Part shown: positions 2,085 to 34,087 of the stretch, piece after piece
How the letters are laid out: each line of letters begins with the position of its first letter
Position numbering within the stretch: the stretch's first letter is position 1
Assembly: GCA_965287045.1 (NCBI GenBank)
Contig: OZ336885.1
Coordinates: forward strand, 65,720,001-65,784,000
Origin: Carcharhinus amblyrhynchos
Taxonomy: Eukaryota
Direction of reading: 5' to 3'
DNA length: 64,000 nucleotides
Made by a program: the position numbers and the translations under genes
Notes under the pieces: generated by a model
Told to the model about the DNA's origin: nothing
The model's database searches: none
The model's input: the letters and a program-made list of their open reading frames with translations, nothing else

Positions 2085-2120
2085 ATCTGGACAGAATGTA
2101 CGCAAAGCTCAAACAACAAG
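2085..2120 (+). CDS. Micro-exon, 36 nt, phase 1-1 (DLDRMYAKLKQQ)
   Basis: Branch-like ctaac, acceptor attgcattttag, donor AAG|gtagtc, open frame. Confidence 0.65.
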
Positions 2121-3722
2121 GTAGTCCGAATAACAACAGCTTATTATTCGAAGGGCAGCAATGATTTTGCGAGTTAACTAACGTTTTATCTCTGGTAAAG
2201 GAAGAATGATGCATGTGTTGAACGGTATAATATGTATCAATACTGCTAAATTTTAAAATAATACGTGCTGACCTGAGGTAAATAAAGAACATCAATCCTT
2301 GGAGTGTTTAACGAAGTGAATTTATTAAGCATGCGTCCTATTGTAGAATCATACGGAGCTGGAATTAAATGAATAAGCCAATAACGCGTCTCCAATTGGA
2401 AGCATCCATTTAGATACCTCGTGCTGATGGAGGCCGTAAAGGTTATAATCTTTCCTTCTTAATATTTGGAGAAATTTGCGTCCTCTATTTATTTACATCA
2501 CAGTTAACCAATTCTTGATAAGTAATGTGCTAAAATATTTCAGCGGAAGGTGGGAACATGGATCAGTGAAATCAACCAGGATATTCGTGGTATACTCAAT
2601 TCGCGTAGTCCTATTCATCAGCACACGACATGTGTGACAGAGATGTCGGTAATTATATATGTCTAACAAGTACAAAAGCCAAATGTATGAACATAAAAAC
2701 GCAAACGTCAAGGGAAGAGCTAATAGAAACATGGGAAAGAAATGGGTGTCAATTTGGTGTTGGGCTGATTAAGGTAAATTGATATAAATGATTCAATGGT
2801 ACACGAACTCAGTACACAGCAACTGAGCAGAACAAGCTTTGTATTTTGTTTGCACTAACTGAGACTAAAAATGTTGAATGAACAACTGAAATAATCGAAG
2901 TCGGATCACCACAATGAAATAAATCTAAAAAGGAAGAAAACGAGCGATTGACAGAGCTTATACATTTGGAACAATTACAACGGTATTTTGGATAGTCAGT
3001 CCAACGGATCCAAGCAGACTCAACTTATTTTGAGCCGCGATTATAATTTATTTGATAGCATAGATGACGTCTACACAACTGTGCAGAGAGAGAAAAAAAA
3101 CATTTGCAAGACAACATGTGCGTTGTTTGCTGGAACATAGAGGGTTGTCAAAGTCATTCTTTCGAAGATTCTGCAATAAATTTGTGTTTCAACGTTTTGA
3201 TTTTGCCCGATGGCGTGTAATAATCACTGTGACAGAAACAAAATGAGAGCGCACTGGAACTATTAGTGACGCACGTTATTCTGTTCCATGCTTCCTTTTA
3301 AATCTTTCAGTAAAATCATATCGGCATTTTTTTTCATTATCTGCATCAATCTAAAAGTACGTTCAACATGACAGCACATAAAGACAAAAAAAGGCATGCT
3401 ACATTGCACAGTGGAAAATCTCTAAAATAAATAAGACATATTCTAATTGACAATGCTGGGATGTTCATCGCATGCATTTCTGTCAGATGAGTGTTTTTTT
3501 GAAAAAAAATATACGGTGTCGAATAAATTGAGGAATTAACATACATATACAGTTTTAAAAGAAGACTTACCACGATATTCCCATAAAATGATGGGCATAG
3601 ACACAACAAGACGCAGATGTCAATGATCAAATGCGTGTATATGATTCTGAGACGCAACCAGTCATCGTTAAGTTCCCTTTTCAAAACAAGCAACAATATT
3701 AAATAATAATATTGTTTTGCAG

Positions 3723-3749
3723 AGGAAGAGTTCCAGCGGAAATCAAACG
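3723..3749 (+). CDS. Micro-exon, 27 nt, phase 1-1 (EEEFQRKSN)
   Basis: Acceptor attgttttgcag, donor ACG|gtaaat, open frame. Confidence 0.65.
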
Positions 3750-6433
3750 GTAAATAAAGAACGAGTGCAGGCAATGTTTGCAGTTGATCATTTATGCAAT
3801 ATAAAAACACAATATAGAATATTGTTTGATTTTTCTGATTAGTATTTCACCTGCGTTGCGAATGTGCCCAACATAGCTTTAAGCAAACTTTCCATCGTTA
3901 ATTCTCAAATACGAAGGACATACTTGGAGCTGTCCGTTTATTACTGGCTGATATTAAGGATCGTTACTTGCAAGTGGTATTTAGATTTGATTGAGATGAA
4001 GTAAAATAATTTGTTAGCGACGCTTAATTCACAACACACTTTGCATTCACTGCCGTATTTAGGACGAAACGCCTCTTAGAAGAAGATCGCAATTATAGAG
4101 GAGATTCAACCAAAATCTGTTCCATAAAAATATTAGTTTGAATTATGTATCCAAGTTGTGTGTTATGTGAAAGTTAAGACACAGAGATAGATGTTTCATG
4201 TTGCGATCTTTTCTTTAAAAGGAGCACAATTCCTTTTGTTTCATTTCCCGTTATCAAAAATATGCTCTCATTTGCTTTGCGAACATTCAAACGCTCTGAA
4301 ATGAATCGGTGATCTTTTCATCACAAGTAGATATTTCCATCGGTTTAAAACTGCGGCAATGATTTCAACTTTCACAGGAACGGGAGAATATTCATGTCAC
4401 ACCAGCACTTATTCAACTTGTGCAAATAAATTGTGGCAAGACACACTTTTTTTGCACAACGGATAATACGAAGTGCGATGTAATTCTAAATGCTCTTACA
4501 CTTGAAGAGGCAACTTTTGCATGATAGATATGCTCCCATAAATTGGGTCTCATAATCCGTTCTTACACGCCAATAGAGGGAATGCAACAGTGTCCTATGT
4601 CCGACTGGCATACATGTATTACCCGTCCTCATATATTACAGTTAGCAGCAAAGACATAACAATAATTATGGATCAAGATAATTCTGATGCTGGGATTAAG
4701 TGTTCCTTTCAAGAATGGCGAAGTTGAAACTACCAAATATTATTTTCAAATATTATATTATTTGTGTCACTTCGTGAAATGTTGTGTTCGCCAGCATTTG
4801 ATTGCAAAGCCAAATTGCCCTTGCGTGTTTGGTGCTGAACAGCGTATTTGCTTCGTAAGCATACAGATGCAGACCTTCAGCGTTCTTACGGAAGAAGTTC
4901 TAATTGTAATGCAATAGCCGGGAAGGAAAGGCAAGGTAGTCATATGCAAATACGTATTGCAATTGCGTGAACATTTGAAGTTGGCGATCTTTCTGGTTCG
5001 CGGTGTTGAGGCGCAGTTCCTGAAATACAACGCTGCAAACAAGCTTCAGTGGATATGTCATGTGTCTTTTGTGTGTCCTATACATTTGTTTTCTCTGTAG
5101 TTTCCCATATACAAAGTGAATTTTCGAACTTTTGGATGGACTGCATTCCATCTGAAATGCTTTGGCCAGGATGTTGCAGAGCCGACCAATGTTACTGGAA
5201 TTAACTCATTCCGTTAGGGGTCCAGAACTATTTTTAAAAAAAGAAAAAATATCTCGTGCAACGTGGGAAAGAAACTCTAGGGAGAGAGAAGGTGGACTGG
5301 GCATTTCCCAGAATGGCTTGCGCCAGATTATTTTTTTCTGGTCAATGCATATTTTCACAATAATAATTAATTAAGAGGACAACATCATATTAGGCCATTG
5401 AATGGCAAGGGGGTATCGGGACTTTGGAACCATCAAAACAAAGCATGCATAAAATGCAAACGTCACTTGAGGGTCATTATTCAACTGTAAAGTATTATCC
5501 AGATTGTGACGAATATCATGTTTCACGATATTCTCGCCGCGAATGCTACTGAATACTGCAGGGTTAAGTAAATGCACTTCACCAGAAATGAATTTGAGAC
5601 GCCGAATGGTAAAACAGCTGAAGGTGACTGACTTGAGAGCAATTATTTGAAAAAAGAATGTTGCAACAATGGCTAGTCACATTGCGAATTGGCATGAATC
5701 TCCAACCAACATATGATCTGCACTAAGCGTTTCTGGAGGATTCGAGGCTTCACTGAAGAACACAAACGTTATCGCATTTAGTTTTATTTCGTGAGCGTTC
5801 CTGTGCAAATTTACTCTGAGCAGCACGCCATTCGAGCGCCCCTGCTGTTTATTTTGACAGGCAGTTGCTCCGAATTCATGGCATCCATTTATACTGCTGA
5901 TAAATCATTGAATAATTTCTGGAACATTGTGATGCGGCAGGTACACAGAACGTGTCCCTCTTCCCAGTTTGGTTTTTCATAACGCTTACTGTGTTTTTTT
6001 TTTAATAGCTCGCACCACATTTCGGGCATCTTCAGTAGACAGGCATCCAGATGCCATCTGCACGCTTCTTTAATGGTCCGTGGGAAGATCTGCATTTTTA
6101 GCAAATCCCTTTTAGTCTCTAATTGAGTAACTTTCTGGATACCTTCAGGGCCATTTCGCTGATTGCTGCATTGATTTTGGGCAAGATTATGCGAAGTTCA
6201 ATTCAAGTGAGAATGGTGGTTTCCCTTCTTTGGCGGGCTTTAAGAATCACTTTTTTTTGCAACACTAAGTAGGTTGGCCATCATGAAAATAACATTCGGA
6301 TGCAAAGGCTTTTCTAACTGCGAACTAAAATTTTAATTGAATTCATTGCCTTATAATTCCCATTAAGGTTTTGTACCTGTAGGTCAAGGTCATTAGAGAA
6401 ATGTCAGTGTTACTATTCACATGATTTAAGAGC

Positions 6434-7740
6434 ATAAGAACATAAGAAATAGGAGTAGGAATAGGCCATCTAGCCCTTCGAGCCTGCCCCGCCATTCAAT
6501 AAGATCATGGCTGATCTGTCGTGGCTCAGTTCCACATTCCCGCCCTCTCCCCATAACCTTTAATCCCCTCGCTTATCAAAAACCCATCAACCCGCGTCTT
6601 AAAAATATTTAGCGAGGCAGCCTCCACCACCTCAACAGGCAGAGAATTCCAGAGGTTCACCACCCTTTGAGTGAAGAAGTTCCTCCTCAACTCCGTTCTA
6701 ACCCCCCCCCCCCTTTTATCTTGAGGCTGTGCCCCCTAGTCCTACTGTCCTTTCAGAGAAGGAAGAGTCGCTCCACCTCTATCCGATCCATCCCATTCAT
6801 CATCTTATACGTCTCAATGAGATCTCCCCTCATCCTTCTAAACTCTAACGAGTACAAGCCTAGTTTATTCAGCCTCTCCTTATAGCCCAACCCCCTCAAC
6901 TCCGGTATCAGCCTAGTAAACCTCCTCTGCACTCCCTCCAAGGCCAAAATATCCTTGCGTAAGTACGGCGACCAAAACTGCACATAGTACTCCAGCTGCG
7001 GCCTCACCAATGCCCTATACAGCTACAGCAAGACCTCCCTACTTTTATATTCAATCCCCCTCGCTATGAAGGCCAGCATCCCTTTAGCCTTCCTGACCAC
7101 CTGCTGCACCTGCAGGCTGGGTTTTTGCGACTCATGCACAAGGACCCCGAGGTCCCTCTGCACCGTCGCCTGCTGCAGTTTTTCGCCACGTAAGAAATAG
7201 TCCTTCCTACCATTATTCCTACCAAAGTGGACCACCTCGCACTTGCCAACATTAAATTCCATTTGCCATTTCCTGGCCCATTCGCCCAGCCTACCTAGAT
7301 CCTTCTGCAGACTCTCCACACCCTCCGCGCAATTTGCCGTTCCCCCAACCTTGGTGTCATCAGCAAATTTCGACACCCTACACTCGGTTCCCTCCTCCAG
7401 ATCATCTATATAAATGGTTAGTAGCTGAGGCCCCAGCACCGACCCCTGGGGCACTCCACTAGTTACCATCCGCCAATCCGAATAGCACCTGTTGACCCCC
7501 ACTCTCTGCCTCCTATTTGACAACCAATCCTCTATCCACGCTAACACCCTACCCCCAACTCCATGCCCCCTTACCTTCTGCAATAACCTCTTGTGAGGTA
7601 TCTTGTCAAACGCCTTCTGAAAAACAAGAAAGACCACATCCACCGGCCCTCCTCTATCCACCGCCCTAGACACATCCTCATAGAACTCCAATAAATTTGT
7701 CAGACACGACTTCCCCTGAACGAAACCGTGCAGCGTCTCC
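6434..7740 (-). mobile_element. Young 5'-truncated CR1 LINE (RT domain plus 3' UTR)
   Basis: ORF 7023-7748 has HGFVQGKSCLTNLLEF, SGVPQGSVLGP, KFADD; ORF 6753-7010 continues after a single stop; 3' tail repeat (cataagaa)2 at 6434-6449. Confidence 0.97.
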
Positions 7741-8254
7741 TCGATCAAGCAATTCCGCTCAAGATTTTACTATTACATCTGCTTTCCTTGGGAGCGGCAG
7801 AGTCGTGCTGTTTGGACAACGGAAAATATTGCATCCGCTATGTTAAGAACATATTTCCCCTTCGCAAAGGTTTCATGACTTGGCGCGCATACCGAGTATT
7901 GTCCAGATTCGTCTGTTACAAGTGAATTGCAAAGGTCGCGGTGTGGAGCCTCTAGATATTTCCAATTGTAAGATAACCGAAGAACTTTGAAATAATGTGG
8001 CAGGGTTGCATATTGATCACTAAACATAATCCTCAAAAGTTTCAGGTAATGGTCACCATAGCGGGTTATCGATTCATTACTTCTCAGAAGGCTAAGTAGC
8101 AGAAGGACTTTTGCCTTTTTGGTACATTCTGTGAGCTTGCATGAGCAATAAATGATGTTCCAAACACTCACTTGGCAAACAGCTGTTGGTTTTATATTAT
8201 TGTGCATCGATCACTTTCTCCTCCTAGCACGGCATGATGACCTGCTCCGTTGGA

Positions 8255-10577: not shown

Positions 10578-10613
10578 ACCATCGAGATTGTTTGCGGAAC
10601 TTCAAGGACGTCG
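10578..10613 (+). CDS. Micro-exon, 36 nt, phase 1-1 (DHRDCLRNFKDV)
   Basis: Acceptor tttatttctcaag, donor TCG|gtgaga, open frame. Confidence 0.6.
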
Positions 10614-11028
10614 GTGAGAAAATTCATATTCTTGACAGAGTACAATTATTTCATTTTTTTCATACTACATTTCGCCTTTTTCGATATCAATAAGAAAAAG
10701 ATCAAAGAAGCATTTTAATGAATAGTGCAAGTTAAACACAGAACCTGAAAATGATATACAGCAGTGCTGCAAATGGTTTACAAGAATTCTCGTTCAGCCT
10801 CGTCACCTTATGGCTGTCGACAGTTATCTATGCTAACAATCAGTTGCATGAAATGTCACCTGCATCATCAAATCCATGCCGAAGCATTGGTCATGAGGGC
10901 AGACTGCAGCGAAATATCATTACGGCCTTGAACAGTAGATTGAAATAATACTCTGGTGTAGGAGGTTAGACAACGGGGGAACAATTAAGTTTGAGCGTGG
11001 GGAGGGCGTAGGGCAGGTTGTGTCTATG

Positions 11029-11078
11029 TATATATATAGAGAGAGAGAGAGAGGGAGAGAGAGAGAGAAGAGAGAAAG
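11029..11078. repeat. (TA)n(GA)n microsatellite
   Basis: Directly visible. Confidence 0.9.
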
Positions 11079-12514
11079 AACACTTGGTTTGACCTGTAAA
11101 TTTGAGAGTCCGCCGAATATTTAAGGTATCTGTGTTGTGTAGTACTGGTCGGTCACTTGGCATTCCAAAATGATTGAAATTTAATTTATGACTTAGAATA
11201 CCGAATCAAAACGTAAAATGAAGCTGAGGGATATTGTTACAACTTTTTAGGGAGTCCCACGTTTGCGTAATACAAAATCATATTTAGCTTGGTACACCAG
11301 TGTTTGTGACGGTGAAAGGCGTGGATGTTTCTGCTGGTCGGGCGATGCAAGGTTGCTATTGGGAAAGAGTGAGAGTTGTTCCTCATTGAAAGTGGAGGAT
11401 TGCAAGGACAGTTATGCCAGGAACAATGGTATTATTTTGTTCTGTTCAGGCGCTGTTAGTTATTTTCAATCATATCGTTATGTTTCACGGTCCCGTGAAG
11501 CCATGAAACCAAAATGAGTATTCCTGAGTGGTTCGTGACTGAAAGGCCTCAGTGGGATCGGGGTCTACTCAAATGGATGTCGTGAAATGGACTGTGGTTT
11601 ATTCAAGTTTCACAAATTCGAGGCGTTTACTATCAGTACAGCAATTTATCAGAGATCCTTAAATGTAAGATCCGGTTAGCTGTAAGCTTGCAGATGGCCC
11701 TTGGATGTCGTACTTTTAAGGAGTATGTTGTCTTCGGCCCTGCAATGCGAGAGAGCGGTAGTATCGCTTCCTCTTGTACTTGTTTATTTGGGGGGCGGGC
11801 AGGCTGAGTGTTGTTTTTTTTTTCCTTTTTTTGGATGGACGAATGTCGTTTGTTGATTTATTTGACGGTTGTTGCCTGCACCGTTTTGTTGCATTAACTG
11901 TTCACAACGTTAATTTGGGTATTAGCATATATGCAAGTAATTATCGAGTTACATTGCATGTAGCGTTCACAAGTTGCCATTCTTGGCTTTACGTTCAGAG
12001 ATAATGCCAGAGTGTCCACGAAAGCAGAGGTCGTCCATCGACATTTCCCTGAATGTTGTTGTGTCTTCCTGGATGAAGGATATCATCTCTGTCAGACGTG
12101 CATTCACAAATTGTGTTCTATCTCAATCTTCCACTCATTCTATTTACTTCGGGAAACGCCTGTTAAAGTCCCACACTTAAGTGGAAATTTCGTCTTGAGC
12201 AGTAGAGACCGAATAATACATGCTGCTGACAGATGAGAAATCGTGAAGTTTACCTATTCTAAAATATTGTCTGCGCATGAATTGAATACTCAAATATTAA
12301 AATCAAGTCGTGCAGACATCCAATTACTGAAAGATTGCATTCTCACTAATTAAAGATTTTAAAACAATATTCATCTTTAATGAGTGCGATTTAGTGAGTG
12401 CGATGTATATTTTAATTCCATATGTAAACACCACTTTTCCAGCAAGATTCAAAAGGAAGTATTGAAATGTGTTTGCTTAGTTAATAATCATTATTCTATT
12501 GTATTCATTAACAG

Positions 12515-12541
12515 AAACTGAAATGGTTATCAACGATGCAG
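12515..12541 (+). CDS. Micro-exon, 27 nt, phase 1-1 (ETEMVINDA)
   Basis: Acceptor ttctattgtattcattaacag, donor CAG|gtagct, open frame. Confidence 0.6.
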
Positions 12542-13894
12542 GTAGCTTAAAACAATCAAATTAGCAGAGTATTTAACAGCCGATTTGTTCAATTGACATA
12601 ATATGAAGCAATAACATCGTGAAAGAATACAGTTGAATATTCAACTCCTGAAACATTACTTTTAAAAATGAGACGTGGAGCTGCGTTTGTCACACAACAC
12701 TCTCGTTATTGAACTCATAAGCAAGTGTTGCTGCACGAGGGCTCCTCCTCCCTGCTGAAATGTTTAGGGCTTTGCATGGAGATCCCCGGGCATAATCAGT
12801 TTCCGTTCAGATCCTGGAATTCAAAATGCAGTTGATGACACCAAATGAATGCAAAGATTGGATTTGACTATGCATTTGGCATTATGTGCTTTCTGCTTGA
12901 AACCATGACGTAGAGTGCTGAGTGTTGTGTTGCATCTAAGTATCCCAAGCTAAAATAGAACATTTCTTTGCTTCCAGTGATAAAGATTGAGAGTATACAA
13001 TTGATGTAGAAACCAGGAATGTTAATGCATTTGGTTGAAATGTTCATTAGCTAGGGAGTAAGCTAGAAAGTATGGACTCCCCAGAAGTAATCTGCGGATG
13101 GCAAACAGCCTCAGGCGACCCTGAAAGATAGCCAGGTGTAAAATAAATGAAAGATCAGAAAAAATAAATATCTGCTTCGAGAAATGCTGAAGATCGAGGG
13201 ATCTGGCCAGTGGTTAATTATGTTTCGATACGGACTATTGCACCGTAGAAGGATTGTGTTGTGGGTACTCACGTTGAAGTTCACATTTGTGCTTGGACCT
13301 AATTACGAAAATAAATGTTGCTTGGAAAACATTACAAATATGTATATGCATAGAGAACAAACGATGTTATGTCTTACTGTTGGATGGTACGGCAGAAAAG
13401 CAGGCAGAATCAGGTTGAATAAGGAAACGATTAAATACGACGATGCTACAATACCACATCTAAATGCAAGGAATTTGATTTGGAACCAGCGTAAGTAAAA
13501 CCAAAACGACATATTCATGCAGATATAACGTAAATGCAATAAAGCATCTGTGCTCAATTGGAATGGCTGCTTACCCAATGGAGAGAATTTGAATGGAAAA
13601 GAATCAGAATCAAGGGGTAAAAGGCGTGGTGGTAACACATATCAGTGAACGTATTGCCGTCGAGAATGTTTGTAGTTATTTGGACGTCAAAAAAAAGATT
13701 GATTTTGCGACCTGATGAGGAAACCATCATGATTGTGGAGTAAGATGTTCCAAAGATGAACAACATTTCCAATCATAAGATTATATTTTACAGGACCATT
13801 GTCTATCAACTTAATACGTTATCTGATAGTCAATTCCTATCCGGAACCATCAAGCTATTGGTATCGTTTAGCTTTTGAGAGAACACAAACAGAA

Positions 13895-14215
13895 GTAATT
13901 AATTAAGGATCCATGTACACCGGCATATTCTTCCATTTCGTTTCTGGCGAACAAAAACACAAAGATCCGAGGACAAGTACCAACCGACTCAAAAAAGAGC
14001 CTCATATGTGTTGTCATCAATCTTCTGAATGGACTTGAATCACATTAAGTTGATTATTTCTATTCCCCTTCTATGACTGCAACAACACATTCTGCAGTCT
14101 TTCACTTCCTTCTGTATGTCGGGTCTGAATTGTCTGTACACGAGCATGAAACAGTGCTTTGCAATGTACACCACTACAGATGACAATATCAAATCAAACC
14201 ACGTCAAATCAAATT
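13895..14215 (+). mobile_element. Rex1/Babar LINE 3' end, decayed
   Basis: KDP..P / RT.TNRLK-like remnant followed by an (aaatc)n tail at ~14190-14213. Confidence 0.65.
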
Positions 14216-14479
14216 AACTCTCTTTCATTACTGGTTGAGAAAATTACATTCTTCCAGATTCGACGCCACTGCAAGCTTAGACAAACGGGTAACAATTGTG
14301 ATAATAGTATTGAAGATGTTAATTGTAACGTCGTAATTACATGAGGCAGCGCATTTCTGAAGTCAGTAATTTCTGGAGCATAGCCAATCTTAGATCGGCA
14401 AGTAGGAAGTAATATTCGCTCCAGGCAAAGCAAGACCAGTTATGACATGCATGCAGAGAGTCACACTGGCGCGCATTAA

Positions 14480-14531
14480 TGTGTGTGTGCGTGCGCGTGT
14501 GTGTGTGTATGTGTGTGTGTGTGTTTGTGTG
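14480..14531. repeat. (GT)n microsatellite
   Basis: Directly visible. Confidence 0.9.
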
Positions 14532-14909: not shown

Positions 14910-15160
14910 CGAGAAATGTAGATGGAAACACCGCCACTTGGAAGGCTTATGCCACTCAACGTTCTTGTCTGGCAATGTGTCGACTATTCAACATCAGATG
15001 GCAAATTCCGCAGGTCCCCCTCAAGTAACACTGTTGGTGCATCTGCAAAATAGAAATGCAGTAGCTTTCGAAGAAAATTCCGAGGCACTTCCACAAACGC
15101 GACAAGGGATGGGCAATAAATGTTTTTGTCGACAGCAACGCCTACATCCCATCAATGTAG
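14910..15160 (+). mobile_element. 3' end of L2/CR1-group LINE (same family as 8438-9000)
   Basis: agggatgggcaataaatg...acgcctacatccc matches the reverse complement of 8445-8500. Confidence 0.65.
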
Positions 15161-16035: not shown

Positions 16036-16071
16036 ATCTCAGCCGACTTGAAGGAGATTCAAAGAAAGCAA
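16036..16071 (+). CDS. Micro-exon, 36 nt, phase 1-1 (DLSRLEGDSKKA)
   Basis: Acceptor ttgttttgatgtaactcag, donor CAA|gtaggt; 22/36 nt identical to exon 31973-32008. Confidence 0.7.
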
Positions 16072-17604: not shown

Positions 17605-17634
17605 GGTTGCACAAGTACATATCCCCGAGGTCTG
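17605..17634 (+). CDS. Micro-exon, 30 nt, phase 1-1 (RLHKYISPRS)
   Basis: Strong acceptor ttttgtttttgtcctcag, consensus donor CTG|gtgagt. Confidence 0.75.
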
Positions 17635-21905: not shown

Positions 21906-21932
21906 GAGCCCAGATACTTCGGGATGAATTAG
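21906..21932 (+). CDS. Micro-exon, 27 nt, phase 1-1 (GAQILRDEL)
   Basis: Long pyrimidine tract ttttttttcccctctcaatcag, donor TAG|gtagtt; the other two frames contain stops. Confidence 0.7.
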   Translation, partial: EPRYFGMN

Positions 21933-23888
21933 GTAGTTGCAACAACTTTAAGTACATTGTTTTTTTTTAACCATGCATTACATAGATGTAACACTTGATA
22001 TAAAATATAGCAAACTCATAATGTATAAATATCTTGGTTTTAATTTTTGGATTTTGCTTTGCCGGTTTTATGATTTTGTCACTCAGCAACTATTTTGCAA
22101 TGAACTATCGACACAACGAGCAATATAGTCATGTTTTCGAGTGTCATTAAGATTATGTGGGACGAATCTTATTTATGTTCGAATTACAAGCCGTAACGAT
22201 GTCGGCTGACATTCCCTTGCACTTCTACTCAAGTATTTCTACTCCTGTACTTGAGGGAAATTTGAGCTGCTGGAATCTCAACAATGCGAAAATAACCCAC
22301 GCAAGCTTCATGAAAATGGGTGCACTTATTTTCGGCAAAATCGCTTAATGAAGTGATGAAAGGATTCCTTAACAAAAATAATGATACAATTCAACGCTGA
22401 ATAATTCAGCTTGCTTTCATACTTAAGTTTGCATTAACGTTTGAATGGTATCATGCAACATATATTCTACACATATGATGAACTGAAATGTTTGTTGCCT
22501 AAAATTAGAGCAACAATCCCAACAGAATTCCATGTCAATCATTGCATGTGTATAGCTGAAAGCAGCACTTTGCTAAAGCCCATTCGACGCTTCTCATGCC
22601 TGACACATTTACAAAATCAATCAAACATACAGAGACCAGGGCCAATGGATAAATGTATTCAAACACAACGTTGTTGTCATAAATAATATTACGAATTGAA
22701 TGGTGCATTGAAATGTGGCTGCCCTTGTTCAATAATATCTTGCGATCACTGCAGGGAATTAGAATATTATGAAACATAATTGTGCACAAAATGACCGTAA
22801 ACTACATGCAATCAGAAAAATAACAACATCAAATACTGGAAATCGGCTTTTGGTGAAGCTAATCATTTCCATTCAATCAGCTTGTGCAGCAGTTTTTCAG
22901 CAAACATCTTTAACTGTTTAGCCAGTTGACTTGCATCGATCACAAAACACTTCGATATTGCTTGCACGATTTTTTTTAGAGGCAAATAACTCGTCCAAGG
23001 ATGAAACAATCTTTTCGCTCTAGAAAAATTATCTCAGATACTGAGCTCATCCACACACAAGCGTTTTCAGGCAGTGCCAGAGTGTGCCACTTTCCACCAA
23101 TATGACATTCCTATAGCCTCTATCGCTTTCGAAGTTATCAAATTGGAGTTTACCATTAAACAGAACTATAAGTTGAATGAAAATGTAAATGGAACTGTTC
23201 CAAAATCAAGTCAGATATTGGGAGTTTCGCAGAGAGTAGTGAAGGGATGGCACGCCAGCGAGTGGACCTTCAAGGTAAAATTCAATCATAGAGAGAAAAA
23301 AAAATCACCGATGCACGTGAATGCATGCAATAATCACTGTAGATATTCGAACAAAGAGTAAACTGGTACGATCACCAAATGCGCATGAGTTATTTGGTCT
23401 GGTACCTGGAACCTCGTAATTCAGCTACTTGATTCAGCATCATTGCATACAATATGATTTGCATACTTAAAATGCCGAATGCTACTTTGACAACATCGCC
23501 GTGCAGCACTAACGCGTGAGTTTGTTGTTGTTGTTCTCTATTCACATGGAATAACGGACTCCATGTTCTGTTAGTGTTGACAAAGTACTAAAAAAAACAA
23601 TTACAGAGTTTCACATGTAGTATATCACTTGCGTGACAACCTCCAAAAGTTAATGTAAAGCCCACTGCACGTTTTTAGACAATCGGAGATATGACATTAA
23701 AATCTCGCATCAGGAAAACCCTCTCCAATCGTCCCACAAAATAACCTGGGGAAGTATTATAATTTCTTCATGATAACGCAAACTTGGAATTCAGCCTCCA
23801 ATAACACTGTGCTCGTTCTGCACAGATTCCAGCAATTCAAACAGACATTGTCAATTATTCACATTTGACTGCGCTGATTAGACATTAC

Positions 23889-24609
23889 GGGCCCCATTTT
23901 ACCGTTTTGATTCTGAGTGCTGAATCTGGGCGCACTTCAGATCCGGCTAAAAAAAAATAATCTCAGGCACCCTATTCGCATTTAGCATGAAACAAAATCG
24001 CGCGCCTGATTGGGGCAGAGTTTATCGCGCCTGACCCGCTGGAGCTCCGATCGGAGCACTGAACTGGGCATGCGCACTGAAAACAAAATTTTTAAAAAAC
24101 ACGCCCCTGTCACATCGATCCGGAGCGGAAAGAAGTGGATGAAGAGACTCAGAAGAGAAAGGCGGGAGAAATGGCACTCACTGACATCGCCCCGCGCCGA
24201 GAAACTATGATCTCCTTACACACTTACCACAAACTGCCCTTCCATCCAGATTGATCACAACATCCAGACCACCTTCCCCCCACTGATCGACCACAGATTG
24301 GCTGCAGTACGCCCCGCCCCCTCCCCGCCCCCCGCCACCAGAGATTATATCTTCCCTCCATTTGCTCCCACAGCGCCCCCCCCCCCACCAGATCCAGAAA
24401 AGGATCGGGCCTCCCACATTCCTTCCCGACCTTAGAATGATCTCACCACCCTACCGCCTCCCCAGACCAGAACATGATCAGGCCTCCATCCTCTCCTTTC
24501 CCCCCCACCAGAGTATGACTAGGCTTCCCTCCTTCCTCCTCGTCTCTGCGCTGAACGCGAATAGTTTCGCGCCGGACTTCACCAACTTGTTGCACCCGAA
24601 ACGGGGCTC
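23889..24609 (+). mobile_element. Non-autonomous PIF/Harbinger element, copy 1
   Basis: Left TIR gggccccattttacc (23889-23903), degenerate right end aaacggggctc, then TTA. Confidence 0.7.
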
Positions 24610-24612
24610 TTA

Positions 24613-26166
24613 GAGACCGATTTTACCATTTTCATTCTAAGTGCTGAATCTGGGCGCAATTCACTTCCAAATTGGAAACCTGGGTTCAGTCGGCCATTAG
24701 CACTTAGCCTCAAAACAAAATCGCGAGTCCGAATCGCGCTGCGGTCAGGGCTTAGCGCGCTCGAAACAAGCGGAGCTCTGAACAGCGCAAGTGCAGTAAG
24801 GAGAAAAATGAAAATCACTCCGCTGTTACATCGCTCCAGGGTTACAAAAAGCGGATAAAGAGGTCAGGGAGCATCCCCCAACCACGAACATAACTGCCCC
24901 CCTTATCCACCCAGCCCTCTTCTTCTACCCAGACATATCGCGGCCTTCTGCCCCCTTTCCCCTCACCGATTGTCCACAGAGTGGCAGTGGACACCTTTGC
25001 CCCGATTCCTCCTCCCTTCCCACCGGAGATTCATTTGGCCTCCTTCCCACGAAATTTCACATACACACAGCTGAGTACTTTGACTCTTTCCCGAGTTAAG
25101 TGCACATACACTCTTATAGCTGGGGAAACACTTCTCTGTGTCGCCTGCACTTACAAATATATGTGAGTTATATATTCAGGCCTTTACTAAAGTTGTATAA
25201 TGAAACATATAGTTGTGTGTACAAATGACTGTTGCTTCATTAAAAAAAAAATCTTTAGAATTTTGTTTAGCAAAAACCAACTTGAAGTACATTCCAAGTG
25301 CTATTTTTTTCAAATTTAGAAGGTAATTTGGGAAATGGTTATACGATAATTTCTACTTCTTCTGAACTTGCTGTTGAGGTGGGGGACAACAATCATGGCA
25401 AGTGAATTATTACCTAACTAACATTTGTAAAAGGAAAGATCAGAGTTAGAACTATCATGGGATATAATGAGACTAATCGAGCCTGCCCCACCCAACACCA
25501 AAAAAGTTCAGTCCTCCCCCCACCCCACCCAAAATGATCGGCCTTTTCCAATCCGCCTGCTCCCCAACCAGACAACGATCTGTCCTCCCTCTCCCCACCC
25601 CTTCCTCCCCGCCCCCCTCCGCCCAACACAACGATCGAGTGTCCCTACTCCCTCCGCCATTCACCTGGGATACATCTGACCCGCTTCCAACAAACCCCGA
25701 CCCCCACCAGAAAATGATTTGCGTCCCTACACCCGCCCCGCCCCACGTACAGAATGATCTGACCCGCCTCCTTCCTTCCTCCTCCGCTCTTCCCTCCAAC
25801 ACAGATCTCAGTCACATAAACATTCGAAGTGCTGACCGCACTTCTCACGAAATTGGAGTGCCGAAACAGTCCTTTGCCGAACGTGTCTGTTTTGCGCCGA
25901 ATCTGGACACGTGAACGCGATGGTAAATGTGGAAATGCTGATGATGTTGCGTGGGGAAATCAGTAATTCAATTTAAATGCATGCAAATGCATTTAAATCG
26001 CCGTTGCGTCCGTTTTGGATGCGAATCAGATCCCGGCGATTTTCGGGCCTCGATAAAGTATGTATCTGCGCTGACACAGGTTTGGATCACATTAATGGCC
26101 TCACGCCCAAATATACTACGTTTTCACGCCAGAAAACGGGCGGGACGCAATGGTAAAATAGGGCCG
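24613..26166 (+). mobile_element. Non-autonomous PIF/Harbinger element, copy 2
   Basis: Left TIR gagaccgattttacc, first ~130 bp similar to copy 1; right TIR ggtaaaatagggccg (26152-26166); 3-bp flanks TTA/TAG. Confidence 0.8.
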
Positions 26167-26694
26167 TAGGTCTCTTCTCTGATCAGTTTTTTCTACAGGT
26201 TCGGGCATGTGCAGGAACGGAATGAATAGGTCCTTATTGAAACGAACATGTCTGATTTGGATGCCGCCCAATATTGCAATTCGATATGCAATTTGGAGTT
26301 AACGAAAGCTCAAAGAAAACTTTCAGAAACCACTGTGTTATCAGCGTAATGGATGACAAGAATCTGAGACGCATGAACAGTCTTCCTTTGGGTAGCAGCG
26401 TTCGCAACTACAAGAGAGATGGAGGAGTGAATTAAATTCATCGTGAAGAAAAGCTGACATTTTAGAAATTTACAGTTTAATGCCCTGGATATGTGGAAGG
26501 ATACAGCAGTACAGCTGAACGGATCTCCTCGACTGGAGAAACAGCAGACTCTATTTTACAACTCCTCTCACTGGAAAAAAAACAGCAACGACATAATTGA
26601 TTACCTTCCCGTTCATCAGCATATATATGTAATGGGGTTTTATGAATGACACATTGATGTTTGTTTCATCTGACATTTTGTTTGAAACTTAAAG

Positions 26695-26724: not shown

Positions 26725-27870
26725 GTGAGTACCCTGCATTATTTTCCGTGCGGAAAATCCACCTCGCGGAGACATTGCTGTCATGAGAGATACTAAAGTG
26801 CTCTTCTTGTTTTTGCTTTTATAACAATCAATGTCTTTCTGTAACATAACTGGTAATTTTAAATATACATGTTTGCCACAAAGTTTGTCAATAAGCATAC
26901 ATTTCCTAAGCCAACAAAGATTCTGACCGGCGGGTGCTTAGTCTTCCCTCAACTCGAGCTGGAAATTCTTGCCCCGGTTATACGATATCTGTATTGACCA
27001 GCACTTGTCACTTTGATTCCGTTGCGGAATGTCCTGTCCTGTTCACTGAATGTCAGATTTTTTTCCCCTATGATAAAATATCCCTGGTGCGAAACAGTTG
27101 AAGCAAAATGATAAAAGATGGAGACTGTCGCATAAGTACATTTTACCGTCATATATGCAGTAGAGGCCATACCCTGATGTGGTGCTTCCGATTCGGACCA
27201 ATTAAAAACATAACGAAGTTTGAAATTTGACTGTGCCAACAAAAGGTCAATAAAATTGGGACAATGAATGAATGTTGGTTGTGGAATACGTTAGTAGATA
27301 TCTATAATTCTCAGTTTGTGGTGAGACAAAAATACAGAAGTTTGGGGGCGGGGCGGGTGGAGGGGGAGGGCGGAGGCGGTGGTCAAACAGTCTGATGGGA
27401 TTTTTTTTTTCATTTCGCCCATTCACAATTTTACCCGGATATTTGGCTTTGTCTCCGAAATCGACAAATGGACGAATGCAGAATTCAATATCTCTTTCCA
27501 TGCATATCATTTTATGCTCCTGTCTTTGTGCAACCTAACATCGCTTCAATGATCCTGGCTGGAATTTATAATTTAACTTGTATACCCCTCACTGGAATTT
27601 GTAAGTTAACGGCGCCTCGAGCTGAAGACAATGCAAAATATTTTGGATGAGAATTGAAATGTTGCCTAATGATGGCTAATAAGACAGGAATTTGAATTTA
27701 TCCTGTCGCGTTTTAGCACGAAGGCAATTTTCGTTTTAATTTGGCTGCAGAGCCAAACATACATAAAATGTAGTTGTAGATTTCGGTAAAATATGCATTC
27801 TCACAATAGAGGTTAGCTTTTTCGTCCATATATTGTGAACACACAATTAGCTTTGCATTCCAGGTGAATA

Positions 27871-28180
27871 GGCAGCAGGGCGACACAATGGTTAGTACTG
27901 CTGCCTCACAGCTCCAGTGCCCCGGTTTCGATTCGTGGCGTGCGTCACTGTCTTGGGGGCATTGCACATCCTCACCGTGTCTGCGTGGGTTTCTTCCGGG
28001 TGCTCAGGTTTCCTCCCACAGTCCGAAAGACGTGTTGGCCATGTTCATTTGGCGTGCTAAATTCTCCCCCAGTCTAACCGAACAGGCGCCGAAGTATGGC
28101 GAGGAAGGGAACTTCACAGCAATTTTATTGAACTGTGAATGTAAGCCTAAGTTGACAGTAATAAATGAACTTAAAAAAAA
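27871..28180 (+). mobile_element. tRNA-derived SINE (HE1-like head)
   Basis: Pol III A-box-like tggttagtactg and B-box-like gtttcgattcg, core ccgtgtctgcgtgggtttc, A-rich tail. Confidence 0.85.
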
Positions 28181-28671
28181 ACCCTATAGACATGCTTTGT
28201 TTGATTGAACTAAAGCACGTTAGCATTGAGGGTGAATTGGTAACTGTGCACTTGTGAATCCACCTTCTCAGTCCACAACGCTGTGCGAGATTATCACAAT
28301 TGGGGTCCTTTCATACAGGATTTCACCACGACCGGCTTTTCGACAACAAGATAATGCCAGAAAAGTTCATGAGGCTATGCCCAATAGATTCAATCATCAC
28401 ATCTTTCCTCACTGTAATTGCAAGATGGTAAATAAACACATTATACAACATTTACAATGAACAACGGCGATCCAACCTTTGTGAATCAACACCGCTCTTT
28501 CTCACCGTTAGCATTTCGCAACACCCTTCATTCTATAATTCTTAATGATCAAACCGTAAACAAACAAAAACGAATAATAATACTGATTAGTTGTTTTGTG
28601 GAAATAAATCGAGTTACATTTCATTATTCCTAACTCATAATGTACACAATTCCATGTGCACTTATAATCAG

Positions 28672-28698
28672 GTTCACAGCATTTGCTAAAAATGGAAG
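28672..28698 (+). CDS. Micro-exon, 27 nt, phase 1-1 (SSQHLLKME)
   Basis: Acceptor cttataatcag (same aatcag|G as exon 21906), donor AAG|gtaatt, open frame. Confidence 0.6.
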
Positions 28699-28799
28699 GT
28701 AATTAATGTTGATCATCTCTTTTCTTCAAGTGCATTATTAATGTTATTACACTGATATCCATTGTTTACCCCACTTCCATATCTAATATTCGTTACCCC

Positions 28800-31460
28800 A
28801 TTATGTCAACCTGTTACAACCCAAGGCGCCATCATGGCAGCCACACTTCCAGCCGGAGGATCCTGCACATTGATGCCAGTGAAGGAGATCCCACAATGCA
28901 CTGTTACTGTGAAAATCAAGATGCACAACTCATTCGCTGGTGAAAGCAGATCGCATGCATTTTTCAGTTACTTATATCATCTGCCATGGCAGCACAACTC
29001 CCACGAGAGATTGCCTTCCAAACCCCAACCTCTCCAGGACACTACATGTCGCTTAGTTTCCTGTTACCCACAATGCAGATGTGCGCCCACGTAGTAGTTT
29101 GCGTGCGGAGCCGAGTTAAGTGTAGGGACAGGTTTGCGCTGGAGCAACGGCACAATAGCTTATAGCGAGTCGTCATCACCCACCTGCATTCCACACAAAC
29201 TCACTAACGCCGCATACACAGGCCCACCACTCTGCTGTTACAATTTTGCAGAAGATTGTAGGACAGCACAAAGGAGACAGAGGGGGGAAACAATTCAACA
29301 CATGTGCGGCAACACACGTCCCTGGAAGCCACAGCAAGATGTCAATTGTTTTCCTCGCCGCGCTCACACGCCTTATTGTCACCAGTTCTCCAGTACCTAC
29401 GTGGTGTTGCTCGTCTTTGTTATTGCTTCATCCTCATCCTCCTCTTCCTCAGCTTCTTCTTCTTTCCCTTCCTCGTCATCCTCGACAGTTTTCTCCTTCT
29501 TCTGATGACCCTGTCGTTGGCCTGCCTTCATGCCCTCCACCTCCCAGAGTTTTCATGACTCCATCGCCACATTGTGTAGGGCATAGCACCTGGATACAAT
29601 GAAGAACAATATCAGCAGGTTATATTGGAGGGGCCAAATTGCAGCCCAGAGACCTGAAAAATATTTTGACGCACCCTACGTACCGCTCCACTAATCAATG
29701 GGTGGAAACGGGTGTCTCATTATATCAGGTCTCCGCCTCAGCATCAGGCCGCTACACCGGCATCATCAGCCAAATCCGATTTGGGTACACCATGCACCCA
29801 ATGATCCATCATTGAACACTGGGTTCCCTCTTAAATATCACCGGAACACCGGAGCTTCACATCAGAAACTGTTATGCATTTTGTTGCTCGCGTGTCTGCC
29901 GCAGATGCGCACGATATTCAGTAGACGGTGGCACAACAGCAAAACACCGATTGACTGGCGCCGTTTTTCGTGGAGCCTTCAGAATGCTGCACTGTATTCT
30001 TGATGGTGGCATGGGTGCAGTCACTGCCCGCTTGCACATTTGTATCCATACGTTGGCCACAAATCCTGATGGGTCAGATCAAGGTCAAATTTAATATATT
30101 GGCAGTCAAGCATTTAGGCATCCTTTAAGTCATTCACACACATGTGGACGGAAAATTGGGAAAATCCACCAAGCTCTCTACTGGTGTTATGGAAGGACCC
30201 CGTGGCATAAAAAAAAACTTAAGGTTGCTGTCACTTTCACAGCCAAAGAGAATGGGTGCGCCCATTACCAACAAATGGTACACTGTTGCACTGTTGCCTG
30301 TTGGAAACGGAGCACTCGGTGACACATGATATCTGAGATTTGCTCAAAAGTCAGTCGGGTGCATAATTGGCAGGATCCCCATTTCCTCCTTTCCCAGCCT
30401 ATTCGGATCGAATGGCGGCGATGACATTCCTCCGGAGCCGTCTCCCTCTCTTCCTTCTAAACATAACGCCTTGGCCTCTTCTGCCCGCAAATCGCCCATC
30501 TCTGCCTCATGTTCAGCAACATCAGAAAAACAACACGATCAGTTGTTTGCACTTCAAAATACATCACATCTATCTAATGAGGGATTTGTGGAAGGGGGAG
30601 ACAGATGAAGAAGATAGAAGACTCTGCTCGCCCCCAGCCCAGCAACACACACTCTGCATGCATCCCCTCTGCCGAAAGCAACAAACACACCTCGGCATTT
30701 CCTCACATTTTCCCAGCAAGGCATCTTCTTCAAAGACCCAAAGCAACCAATCAAGACATTCTCCCCATACTCACATAAGCCACCAGCAGCACTCACGCTG
30801 CATAACCCACATCCTCCCCCCAGCGCACATTCACCACACCAACCATTAGTCCCTAAACTGGCAACACATTCATCTCATCTTCCCCCTCTCCCACTTACAA
30901 ACACACAGCCAGAAACCATGCATTTGTGGTCCATTCAGTGCTGCTTTTCAGATCATGAGCCGGCAGTACGGCCAGTGCAGAGCGTTTCCAGCCTATCCTC
31001 CACGATCAACTCTGGTTGTTGCTGCTAGCACTGGGACCAAGAATCAGTGGTAAGACCTCAGGTCAACAGTCTGACCGGCTCCAATCTGAGAGACAGATTT
31101 CAGATCCCATAGCCAACTGCAGCAACCAACCTCAAGTAGACACTGGGAGCTTCGTCCAGCGACCCGGAAGACAACATAAACATCCCGCTGAGCAGCAAGG
31201 AGCAGTGAGAAAACACAGAGTTACCTCCTTACTCACTCCTACTGCTCAGGCGTCTGAATGCAATTTTTCGCATTTGAATTGTTTTACTGGCCAATCAATC
31301 GATATCGAACGAGATACTTATGACAGGAAGCCAGCGGTGACTGCGAATGAAACTCGTTGAAACATAGCGATGAATTAAAAAAAACGCTTTGCCTATTTGA
31401 GGCGGAGCATAAATCGCGCTGTTGTTTTATTTTCCTCTGGTAAGATGGAAATGTGTGAGA
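28800..31460 (-). mobile_element. Decayed autonomous PIF/Harbinger transposon; transposase remnant at ~29420-30480
   Basis: Across frameshifts the minus strand reads LAVKVTATL..YATGSF, DCTH, WLMMPV, ET*YNE, LVERYVG, LQY, CYALHNVA, then an acidic tail, matching HARBI1-like DDE transposases. Outer boundaries approximate. Confidence 0.85.
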
Positions 31461-31489
31461 CAACGACACCATTCCGGCTAGTCGCATAA

Positions 31490-31620
31490 TGCCCGATTTT
31501 ACCATTTTTTCTTCCGCCGCAAAACGGACGCGAAGAAGTCCTAAAACACTACCTCTTCCCCACCACCCCCAAGTGTCCGCAGCATCGCATTTATGCATCC
31601 CAGATTGGTCTCCTATGATG
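31490..31620 (+). mobile_element. Harbinger terminal fragment
   Basis: gcccgattttaccatt matches the TIRs at 23889 and 24613. Confidence 0.5.
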
Positions 31621-31972
31621 CAAATTGCGAAATATTCCTGAAAACTTCTTTTTTTATTATCCACATCTGAATAAAACCAAATAAGAGAACAATTAAATTC
31701 GATACTTGCGTTGCACAATTATAGCAAACCATTAGCAACGCCCAGGCTGTCGGAGAGATGCCACCATTCGTACGTCCTCTACTACACTGATATTCTAATC
31801 GAGCTGATTTTCAGTTTGTCTCCCGAAATGTGTCTTAATGGTGAGGGTTGCTGTCTCTTTTGTTTTAAGAATGTTCTTTCTTATTGAATACATACATTTT
31901 TCTGCTTATGTGGTCCCACGTAATAATATTTTTTTTTCACTTTTGTTGACGCATATAAATACACGGTTTCAG

Positions 31973-32008
31973 AAATTCAACGACTAGAAGATGAACTGAA
32001 GAATGCAA
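31973..32008 (+). CDS. Micro-exon, 36 nt, phase 1-1 (EIQRLEDELKNA)
   Basis: Acceptor acggtttcag, donor CAA|gtaagg; coiled-coil-like peptide; similar to exon 16036. Confidence 0.75.
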
Positions 32009-32160
32009 GTAAGGATCCGCGTTGTTAAATATGTTCTCAATTCAAATTTATTTCGCTATTGAAAAAATTGTCTAACCTGTCCCTTTGCACAGTGTGTTAA
32101 TGTACATCCCAGCAAAAACCGCCTCCCTTCCGTCATAACTGGCGGGGGGGGGGGGGGGGG

Positions 32161-32509
32161 GGGGGGCGCAGGGTAGCACATTGGTTAGCGCTGCTTCTTC
32201 ACTGCTCCAGGGTCCTGGGTTTGATTCCCGCCTCGGGTCACTGTCTGTGGAGTTTGCACATTCTCCTCGTCTCTGCGCGGGTTTCCGTCCGGTACTCCGG
32301 TTCCCTCCCACAGTCCAAAGATGTGCGGATTAGGATGATTGGCCATGATAAGAAATTACCCCTTATTATCCAGTGTTGTATAGGTTAGAGGGGTTAGTGG
32401 GTATAATATGTAGGGAAATGGGAGTAGGGCCTGGGTGGGATTGTGTTCCGTGCAGACTCGATGGGCCGAAGGGCCTCTTTCTGCACTGTAGGGTTCTATG
32501 ATTCTATGA
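32161..32509 (+). mobile_element. tRNA-derived SINE with CR1-type 3' tail (HE1-like), preceded by poly-G
   Basis: A/B boxes, core, tail gggccgaagggcctc...ttctatgattctatga. Confidence 0.9.
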
Positions 32510-33109
32510 ACTTTGACCTGCTTCACGGTATCTCGATTTTAAAATATCATTTCTTAATCACAAGCTCCCTCTATGAATCTCACTTGCCCATATACCTATG
32601 AAGTATGTCGTCAACCACATCTGTTTTCTGCCAATTCTTCGTCAATAACAGCCCTGAGCTTTCGGACTATGCGGCAACACAACTTTTATTCGTATGGTAA
32701 ACTGCGATAGCTAGTTTAATCAAAAACATACCTCCTCATGGATTTGTTGCTTTCCTTAAAGTGGTCTTTCATCCGTGCACGAGAACCAAATATTTCGCCA
32801 ACTCCAAAGTATGTTTGTGACCAATCCTGTAAAGATATAACACTTAAGTTCAGTTCATCGTTCATGCCAAGAACGTGGATGGAGTCGCTTTTAAAAAAAA
32901 ACTCCCAAGATTGATTTATAGGGAAAGCGTTATGTCTTCTGGCGGCAGCATGCCACCTCCGATTTTGATGACGTGAATGTCAGCAGATTATGCTGTCAAG
33001 GAGTTGTGTTTGAATAACTCTTTTCCACCGTAAGGAACGATCATACTGTTCGATACTATAAAGGAACACAACAAATATGTCTGTGATTTGAAAATTAAGG
33101 AGGGTTGGA

Positions 33110-33440
33110 TTCATACGGAAAATAAAATGAAAAGCATCATATATGACTGAAGCCATACTCTCTTTCGACGTTTCTGTCAGGATGAGTAAAAAGACTGAAT
33201 ATCTGGAAACACGTATCAAGAGACACATGAATAGATTCTTCCCTGCCACCATTATGTTTTTGCCACGCATTAAGCTGGCCTATCTCGTCAACCTATTAGT
33301 AGTTACAAAACTGTTTTCTTCACTTCATCCTTTCTTTCTCCCTATGTACTCTATTAGCAGTATGCTTCGTCTGTAAACACACGCATGGAATAATGTTCCT
33401 CACTGTATCCCATTCGATGTGACAATAATGAATCAATGCA
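33110..33440 (+). mobile_element. Rex1/Babar 3' end, decayed
   Basis: LETRIKRHMNRFFPATI (cf. LRTRTNRLKNSFFPAAI). Confidence 0.65.
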
Positions 33441-34060
33441 ATTCATTTTGAGCCATTGAAGTTCAAAATAATTGACATGAAATTTAATAATTCAACTTGG
33501 CTGCTTGGCTATGCTGAAGAATACTGGGCGATGTGTTTCTTTTCCACATTTTGCTGCCACACATTTTCTGTAATAGAACGGCAATCGTAGTTAAAATAGA
33601 ATCTTAATTTTCCATGACCACTGAACGTGGAAGATGACTGTTAGTTCTGTGAACTTTAAGTTTGTCAAGCTTTCACTTTCATAATTTTCTGTTGTTCATG
33701 CTTCAATGCATACGTTTTATCCATGAGATCCACATAAGATGTCTGTTTTTATTTAATGTAAGAACAGATTTTAAAAATTGCTAGATTAATGATAAATAGT
33801 TAACATCGTGAAAATTCATCCTCGGGATACGCCTTGTTCATCGTTAGATATCTTGTGGTAGGGGGATGTCGTCTATATCACTGATTTGAATGTATGCAAT
33901 TGTCGTCTATAAAATGCAGGATGACTTCAGGCACGTTGTTCAAGTTGTCCAGCAGCAGACCATCCACGATCATCTATCAACCATTCTGAATATTTATGTT
34001 CGTTCGACATCATTATTCATGGATAAATGTTCATTATGCCCTTTCACAATTGTCGTGCAG

Positions 34061-34087
34061 GGAACAAGTTCAAAGAAGAAGAGCCGG
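34061..34087 (+). CDS. Micro-exon, 27 nt, phase 1-1 (RNKFKEEEP)
   Basis: Acceptor ctttcacaattgtcgtgcag, donor CGG|gtaaga, open frame. Confidence 0.7.

Follow-up and report, generated by a model that had tools for sequence, protein, structure and literature searches.

The window, a 64,000-nucleotide stretch of Carcharhinus amblyrhynchos contig OZ336885.1, probably carries a real and old array of micro-exons that encodes an interrupted coiled coil, varies the BG/butyrophilin design and grew by duplication of a two-exon unit. The 11 exons would form the middle of a single + strand cartilaginous-fish gene that starts upstream of the window and probably also ends outside it. Two alternating classes are distinguished, A and B. 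The proposed history is long-ago growth by repeated duplication of an A+B unit, and the product would most likely be a dimerising, interrupted rod that determines how far away a terminal interaction domain lies.

Predicted exons and splice sites

The exons named in the original prediction were borne out in position and size. All 11 are preceded by AG and followed by GT on inspection of the sequence, and all are in phase 1 at both ends and share one open frame. The predicted spliced frame runs for 111 codons without a stop, and each of the other two frames contains 4 stops. Four exons are 36 nt long, six are 27 nt (those at 21906 and 28672 among them) and one is 30 nt. Because every exon is in phase 1-1, gain, loss, trimming or skipping of any of them keeps the frame. 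The window holds 11-14 exons in 64 kb, the higher figures including further candidates.

All named exons lie on the + strand, and their splice sites were ranked among 2450 candidates, with splice weights (and, below, a coiled-coil matrix) that do not derive from a tool. The first unit comprises A1 (2085..2120, 36 nt, open), which has the weakest splice score of the set at rank 62, and B1 (3723..3749, 27 nt, rank 7). The second comprises A2 (10578..10613, 36 nt, rank 18) and B2 (12515..12541, 27 nt, rank 1), and the third A3 (16036..16071, 36 nt) and B3 (17605..17634, 30 nt, rank 2). A4 (21906..21932, 27 nt), a putative A-class exon shortened at its 3' end, is followed by B4 (28672..28698, 27 nt, rank 11), and A5 (31973..32008, 36 nt) by B5 (34061..34087, 27 nt, rank 5). 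The last exon (35786..35812, 27 nt, rank 25) is B-like and not A-like. It has no A exon before it, and the alternation breaks there.

At a splice score of at least 3.8, 20 open symmetric candidates were found on the + strand versus 5 on the - strand (of 1230 and 1220 candidates, respectively); the 20 are 10 of the 11 named exons and 10 others. For AG..GT candidates of 27 nt, the counts are 12 on + versus 2 on -. Splice rank alone is partly circular, since the exons were first chosen by their splice signals. The homology among A exons and their hydrophobic a/d seam, both described below, are independent of that choice. With relaxed filters, the - strand gives between 7 and 20 splice-like candidates, so that one or two of the 11 exons, or any added candidate, may be false. 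That the whole set is a chance collection of splice-like sites in intronic DNA is nevertheless extremely improbable given the A-class homology, the seam and the strand excess. The 11 exons are very probably coding.

Further + strand candidates lie downstream. The A-like candidate at 36222..36248 (27 nt, splice rank 13) matches A1 at 15/27 nt (p=0.015 in codon shuffles), and its best nucleotide identity is matched by 3/985 background sites. The candidate at 58955..58990 (36 nt) ranks 6 of 2450 by splice score and 3 when exon composition is added; it shares 18/36 nt with A1 (p=0.013-0.027), and a profile does not place it among the eight most A-like candidates. A stretch at 59929..59960 follows an AG and shares 18/27 nt with B2, a marginal likeness because, of some 7000 AG-anchored sites, the runners-up share 16-17. 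It has no GT at +27 and meets a stop codon two codons on; it may be a terminal exon, a dead exon or a product of chance. Between 36250 and 58950 we found no convincing exon, only weak candidates and a microsatellite. This gap and the donor-less stretch at 59929 would fit a decaying or partly dead array, either a pseudogene or a set of unused exons. We consider such decay quite improbable, as none of the 11 exons contains a stop or has lost a splice site and the a/d seam has been kept despite deep divergence.

Several other candidates were rejected. Those at 20255 (24 nt) and 26695 (30 nt) would pair tidily with 21906 and 28672, which follow 1.6 and 1.9 kb later, but they are not A-like and such candidates are common. 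A terminal exon at 37820 and a first exon at 56863 were unsupported guesses, and an A-like score at 60286 sits within a CR1 fragment.

Two exon classes and the two-exon rhythm

Similarity between exons exceeds that of shuffles in class A and does not in class B. The four 36-nt exons are mutually 41% identical (0.407, versus 0.302 in codon shuffles; p=0.0005). The 22/36 nt reported to be shared by A3 and A5 were confirmed (p=0.0002 in nucleotide shuffles, 0.0016 in codon shuffles), as were the GCAA end before gta in both exons and the GG at the start of the exon that follows each. In leave-one-out comparisons with the other A exons, the likeness of A1 was matched by 1/203 background sequences at the nucleotide level and 0/203 at the peptide level, and that of A3 by 0/203. 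A2, the most diverged A exon, did not reach significance (24 and 46 of 203), and its best heptad register is that of the other A exons. A4 also has this register. Its best BLOSUM score of 20, to A5, was reached by 0/985 background acceptors; its nucleotide likeness is weaker (13/27, codon-shuffle p=0.07). A4 is thus placed in class A by its predicted peptide, an assignment made after the fact. The aatcag acceptor before G that A4 shares with B4 is present as claimed, but it extends merely three bases beyond the consensus and joins exons of different classes.

The B exons are not more alike than shuffles (p=0.45, 0.66 and 0.51). A likeness of 14/27 nt between 12515 and 35786 had been put forward. 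The count is right, but the likeness is within chance (p=0.013 by nucleotide and 0.16 by codon shuffle) because the six 27-nt exons offer 15 pairs to choose from. The gapped peptide likeness of 35786..35812 to B1 is reached by 1.6% of background matches.

The two-exon rhythm exists. With 21906 counted as an A exon, A and B alternate strictly across ten exons (P=0.013), stricter than the original prediction had allowed; the break comes at 35786. By lengths alone, the chance that each of the four 36-nt exons precedes a shorter exon is P=0.11. The introns following the 36-nt exons measure 1602, 1901, 1533 and 2052 nt, upholding the claimed distance of 1.6-2.1 kb to the next 27- or 30-nt exon. They are shorter than the remaining six introns (1698-6828 nt; p=0.019, exact rank test), although the 6739-nt intron after A4 is unlike the other A-to-B introns. 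The units are 21, 21, 22, 18 and 21 aa long. The equation of a 36+27-nt pair with 21 aa therefore holds for units 1, 2 and 5 and fails for unit 3, where the 30-nt B3 gives 22 aa, and for unit 4, with 18 aa.

The rhythm and the spacing speak for an array built by exon-pair duplication, whereas the sequences of the B exons and flanks do not. The flank comparison suggested as a check gave no homology except one shared repeat element, and no duplication at the level of the unit came out of searches for direct and tandem repeats. We infer pair duplication from order and spacing and not from sequence, because neither the B exons nor the flanks are homologous; on that basis, duplication of the A+B pair as a unit is likely. 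The same lack of homology, together with the P of 0.11 for lengths alone, would be expected if only the A exons had been duplicated and the B exons had arisen or been recruited independently, with no pair unit. This appears improbable in view of the equal length and phase of 5/6 B exons, the strict alternation and the similar lengths of the A-to-B introns; moreover, exons of eight codons soon lose detectable homology.

Heptad register of the predicted peptide

The 12 residues of the A exons are, by composition, hydrophobic at positions 2, 5, 9 and 12, and exon A would give an amphipathic helix. Their a/d sites are hydrophobic in 13/19 cases versus 3/33 elsewhere (p=1.5e-5, uncorrected for having picked one of seven registers). 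Scored singly, the A exons favor one heptad register, which is the best in 4/5 and the second in the fifth. The 9-residue exon B would be a hydrophilic spacer after which the next A exon is back in the same register. Arithmetic and score agree on this return in units 1, 2 and 5; units 3 and 4 do not show it, and the register may have drifted where exon lengths changed.

The best coiled-coil score of the spliced peptide lies above those of 300/300 residue shuffles at windows of 14 and 21 residues, and at 28 it was reached by 10/300. The coiled-coil prediction proposed as a check thus beats shuffles, but scores are high only in the first unit and in the 28672-34061 stretch, where A5 is the strongest segment. 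From 10578 to 17605 the mean probability is at most 0.22 at windows 14 and 21.

The same gene may encode no continuous coil, the A exons forming short amphipathic helices and the B exons flexible linkers between them, with a 21-residue period that is inherited from the founding unit and not a selected register. Class B scores below 1 in every one of the seven registers and does best in a register other than the predicted one, which just 2/6 B exons favor. Hydrophobic residues are not enriched at the B-exon a/d sites (4/10 versus 5/30, p=0.14). The register is broken in 2/5 units. The second half of the peptide has seven Pro/Gly residues, and Pro/Gly cluster at B ends, with a proline close to the end of B3 and one at the end of B5. 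The whole chain has no power at periods of 3.5 and 7 (p about 0.2 and 0.6) and is weak at 3.6 (p=0.026). On the other hand, only 2.3% of 300 random exon orders reach the score of the real order at window 21 (10% at window 28), windows 21 and 28 both predict coil across B4-A5-B5 with values of about 0.8-1.0, and 4/5 27-nt B exons have F or M at position 4, where the a site is predicted. We therefore regard the helix-and-linker arrangement as rather unlikely and favor the interrupted coiled coil.

Exon removal gave a mixed picture. Taking one B exon out of the first five exons lowered the continuous-register score from 1.23 to 0.99 or 1.12, and removal of an A+B pair did not lower it (1.47, 1.28). 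The latter test is not clean because removing A2 alone also raises the score (1.29). As to the proposal that a 63-nt pair has been preserved for its register, 12+9 residues do restore the A register and the real order beats random ones, but only 3/5 units are 21 aa long and the B exons fit poorly; the proposal is weaker than the exon array itself.

Searches and comparison with known systems

The Pfam scan covered 441 of the 919 ORFs of at least 38 aa in the window, as sets of 150, 145 and 146 (+ strand, at least 45 or at least 50 aa; - strand, at least 62 aa). Only RVT_1 at 7026-7766(-) passed the cut-off. The best named relatives of this intronic CR1 reverse transcriptase come from Callorhinchus, Hypanus and Pristis. 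Among the 441 ORFs there was no Ig, B30.2 or lectin domain, nor any RING/B-box or TNF match, and exons under the 45-62 aa ORF cut-offs would escape such a scan. Downstream of 35800, the 150 + strand ORFs of at least 45 aa in the 28 kb to the window end include no B30.2, and the gene may extend further. Rfam gave 0 matches in the window.

Built from 4 or 5 A-class exons plus short stretches of flanking intron, profiles returned 83 and 54 candidates, all of them above E=10 (proteins of 73-2000 aa), and an 11-exon profile did not recover its own source. In simulations with copies mutated at 20%, the tested profiles recovered at most 1/10 at E<=0.001 and at most 2/10 at E<=10; overall, power tests indicate that the homology searches fail below about 90% identity. 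The single match in a filter-free library search, P0001, is a bacterial repeat protein and was taken as chance, and four PDB sequence matches (E 0.087-5.2) were rejected as homologues. In RNA run X1, contigs of depth 7-10 extend across introns and differ at about 2% of letters (for example 51 in 2423 and 63 in 2607), 40 of the 469 differences being listed; the joints among those listed are repeat-to-repeat only. Titles and abstract openings retrieved by searches of largely open-access literature yielded no 36/27-nt exon array in cartilaginous fish, although supplements, for example that of PMC12841164, may hold shark butyrophilin models.

By analogy, the rod could work like the chicken BG tail or the butyrophilin juxtamembrane coil. 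Two papers describe long BG tails as a presumed coiled coil encoded by many tiny 21-nt exons whose first codon is split 1+2 (PMC5938342; PMC4046983). The shark array resembles them as a predicted coiled coil built from tiny split-codon exons, in phase 1-1 in 11/11 cases. It differs in its two alternating classes of 36/27/30 nt, where BG tails have one 21-nt exon per heptad and occasional exons of 18 or 24 nt, and in its introns of 1.5-6.8 kb. By the counts given above, the hydrophobic seam of BG tails is seen here in the A exons and not in the B exons. Exons for a BG-type Ig-V domain and a transmembrane segment would lie upstream of the window, whose 441 scanned ORFs gave no Ig match. The IgV (+IgC) and transmembrane segment of a butyrophilin would likewise fall outside it.

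Some of the small spacer exons of butyrophilins are 21 or 27 nt long. Butyrophilins (BTN/BTNL) also use small exons to encode a predicted coiled coil, with few heptads in mammals compared with at least 11 exons and 111 residues here. The predicted spacer lies ahead of B30.2 and takes up four small exons in BTN3A3 (PMC5829056; PMC7348870). Butyrophilins have been reported in cartilaginous fish, and heptad numbers vary in squamates (PMC12841164). A bolder reading, which we hold to be possible but doubtful, is a segment of a giant, largely unannotated butyrophilin/TRIM-like gene of cartilaginous fish, in which the rod is made of a two-exon, three-heptad module and A and B are spliced in or out as a pair. 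Rod length, and with it the distance from the anchor to a B30.2 sensor, would then be tuned in register, independently of the single-heptad solution of BG. If the gene does end in B30.2, cartilaginous fish would have a BG-like long-tailed receptor made from a different exon module. This would bear on the evolution of butyrophilin tails and open coupled micro-exon splicing to testing with long reads.

Pair duplication as such is known. The NBPF/Olduvai repeat unit comprises two exons amplified as a doublet (PMC9313022), and intragenic tandem arrays include NBPF and ANKRD30A (PMC2588610). The NBPF arrays are young, with over 95% identity including introns and exons of 52 nt and more than 140 nt, and have no sequence relation to the shark exons. 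Of the doublet homology seen in NBPF, only the A half is found here (p=0.0005, versus 0.45-0.66 for B, and none in the flanks); age may explain the loss. The stalk of CD23/FCER2 has 21-residue, three-heptad repeats tied to exon structure, with one 63-nt exon per repeat. Its few repeats are followed by a C-type lectin domain, and the ORFs scanned in the window gave no lectin match. Annotation and homology search easily miss genes whose exons of 27-36 nt lie between multi-kilobase introns. Amplification of exon doublets is known, as are coiled coils encoded by micro-exons, and the interest of the shark array therefore lies in their combination and in the hidden gene.

Eleven micro-exons in a single phase

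The 11 micro-exons of the original prediction, starting at 2085, 3723, 10578, 12515, 16036, 17605, 21906, 28672, 31973, 34061 and 35786 (36, 27, 36, 27, 36, 30, 27, 27, 36, 27 and 27 nt long, respectively), were found at these positions, every one bounded by AG and GT. All are in phase 1-1, with a codon split 1+2 at both ends. When joined in sequence, they form an open frame of 111 codons; four stops interrupt each of the remaining two frames. Of 2450 open symmetric candidates ranked by splice score (acceptor training leave-one-out), the best 25 include ten of the exons; 20 of these 25 are on the plus strand and 5 on the minus strand. Exon 2085 ranks only 62nd. Since splice signals were used in choosing the exons, the internal evidence makes the stronger case for coding. 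The four 36-nt exons have a mean identity of 40.7%, compared with 30.2% in codon shuffles (p=0.0005). In class A, comprising these four and the 27-nt exon at 21906, 13 of 19 heptad a/d positions are hydrophobic versus 3 of 33 elsewhere, in a register picked from the data as one of seven. The array is putatively spliced into one product.

The two best candidates outside the original set are a 36-nt exon at 58955 and an A-like 27-nt exon at 36222. Downstream of the former, a stretch at 59929 resembles exon 12515, with no GT donor and an early stop. These unproven candidates suggest that the array continues over a repeat-rich 23-kb intron. At 37820-37941, 1.6 kb after candidate 36222, a strong acceptor leads into a short open stretch closed by a stop, with ATTAAA at 37936; this is a possible alternative last exon. 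A 51-nt phase-1 candidate at 56863-56913, preceded by a good acceptor, contains an ATG; it may be one more exon or begin a different transcript.

Alternation of two exon classes

The array had been proposed to arise by duplication of exon pairs. The likeness of 16036 and 31973 is real (22/36, p=0.0016, codon shuffle), while that claimed for 12515 and 35786 (14/27) cannot be told from chance (p=0.16, codon shuffle). In a leave-one-out test against 203 background candidates, exons 2085, 16036 and 31973 were each recognised by the other A exons, with 0-1 background candidates as good; 10578 was not recognised. The partner (class B) exons are no more alike as a class than shuffles (p=0.45-0.66). 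Anchored flank comparison and blastn of 800-nt flanks revealed no homology between units, the sole similarity being a repeat element common to the flanks of 28672 and 31973. Pair-wise duplication is a putative origin of the array.

The 21906 peptide resembles that of 31973, with a score of 20 that none of 985 background acceptors reaches, and its preferred register is that of class A; on nucleotides alone the case is weaker (p=0.07). The intron following this exon opens with bases (21933-21942) that close with GCAA, shifted by one base relative to the terminal GCAA of exons 16036 and 31973; this may be a relic of a former 36-nt end. With 21906 taken as a trimmed A exon, A and B alternate five times running, followed by the B-like 35786. 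On that assignment the alternation is stricter than first noted over the five units and breaks at 35786. With 21906 classed as A post hoc, by sequence and not by position, the probability of a B after every one of five A exons in a set of eleven is P=0.013; judged by lengths alone, the alternation is unremarkable (P=0.11). The introns that follow the 36-nt exons are short compared with the rest (p=0.019), unlike the 6.7-kb intron after 21906. The latter is repeat-rich at 23851-26518; the stretch at 23890-26170, which contains a 52-nt internal direct repeat (23893/24617), may account for part of its length.

Heptad register of the joined peptide

Coiled-coil propensity was scored with a COILS-type matrix. 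Scored singly, four of the five A exons fit best when starting in register g, and 12+9 residues return the next A exon to g. The units are 21, 21, 22, 18 and 21 residues long, and those of 22 and 18 count against a strict pair rule. In coiled coils, loss of three residues is a stutter and gain of one a skip, and coils can absorb both. The best coil window beats residue shuffles in 300/300 cases at widths 14 and 21 and in 290/300 at width 28. Only 2.3% of random exon orders reach the score of the real order at width 21, an effect that is weak at width 28 (10%). Coil probability is high only across 2085-3723 and 28672-34061, B exons fit poorly in all registers, and Pro/Gly residues cluster in the second half of the product; each of these likewise counts against a strict pair rule. 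Given these features and the unit-length breaks, an interrupted coiled coil is the best reading of the rod, which would putatively dimerise. The original observations are confirmed and their interpretation is partly supported.

Genomic surroundings and known systems

CR1 fragments and SINE-like repeats occur in the window, which consists of vertebrate intronic DNA. A CR1-type LINE fragment (6430-7770, minus strand) lies in the intron after 3723; its RVT_1 stretch (7026-7766, minus strand; 247 open codons, E 3.8e-23) has its best named relatives in Callorhinchus (65%), Hypanus (60%) and Pristis (59%), making a cartilaginous fish the most likely source. Other decayed CR1-like fragments are at 46400-48480, 59960-61200 (plus strand) and 38400-40300; at 47115-47366 and 59961-60407 there are weak RVT_1 matches that fall below the cut-off. 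Three copies (27870-28200, 32170-32510 and 37000-37260) belong to a SINE-like repeat of very high abundance, with summed depth of up to a million in a sequencing run whose contigs were compared to the window. The GC-richer 28760-31330 looks on reading like a decayed DNA transposon, with no Pfam match above its cut-off. ORF remnants at 45080-45460 and 51800-52150 (minus strand), also without a Pfam match, have motifs that we take to be like Gypsy-type retrotransposon pol.

A scan of 441 ORFs found no informative domain, whether Ig, B30.2, lectin or another, and three profile searches, whose simulated power was low, found no credible homologue; any family assignment is putative. In the BG tail, as described in two papers (PMC5938342, PMC4046983), split-codon micro-exons encode a presumed coiled coil, and to that extent the array would be alike in its working. 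However, it lacks the 21-nt exons of BG and the few heptads of butyrophilins, a BG-type ectodomain would lie upstream of the window and a B30.2 exon may lie beyond its end, and we place the array in neither family. Amplification of exon doublets is already known from NBPF (PMC9313022).
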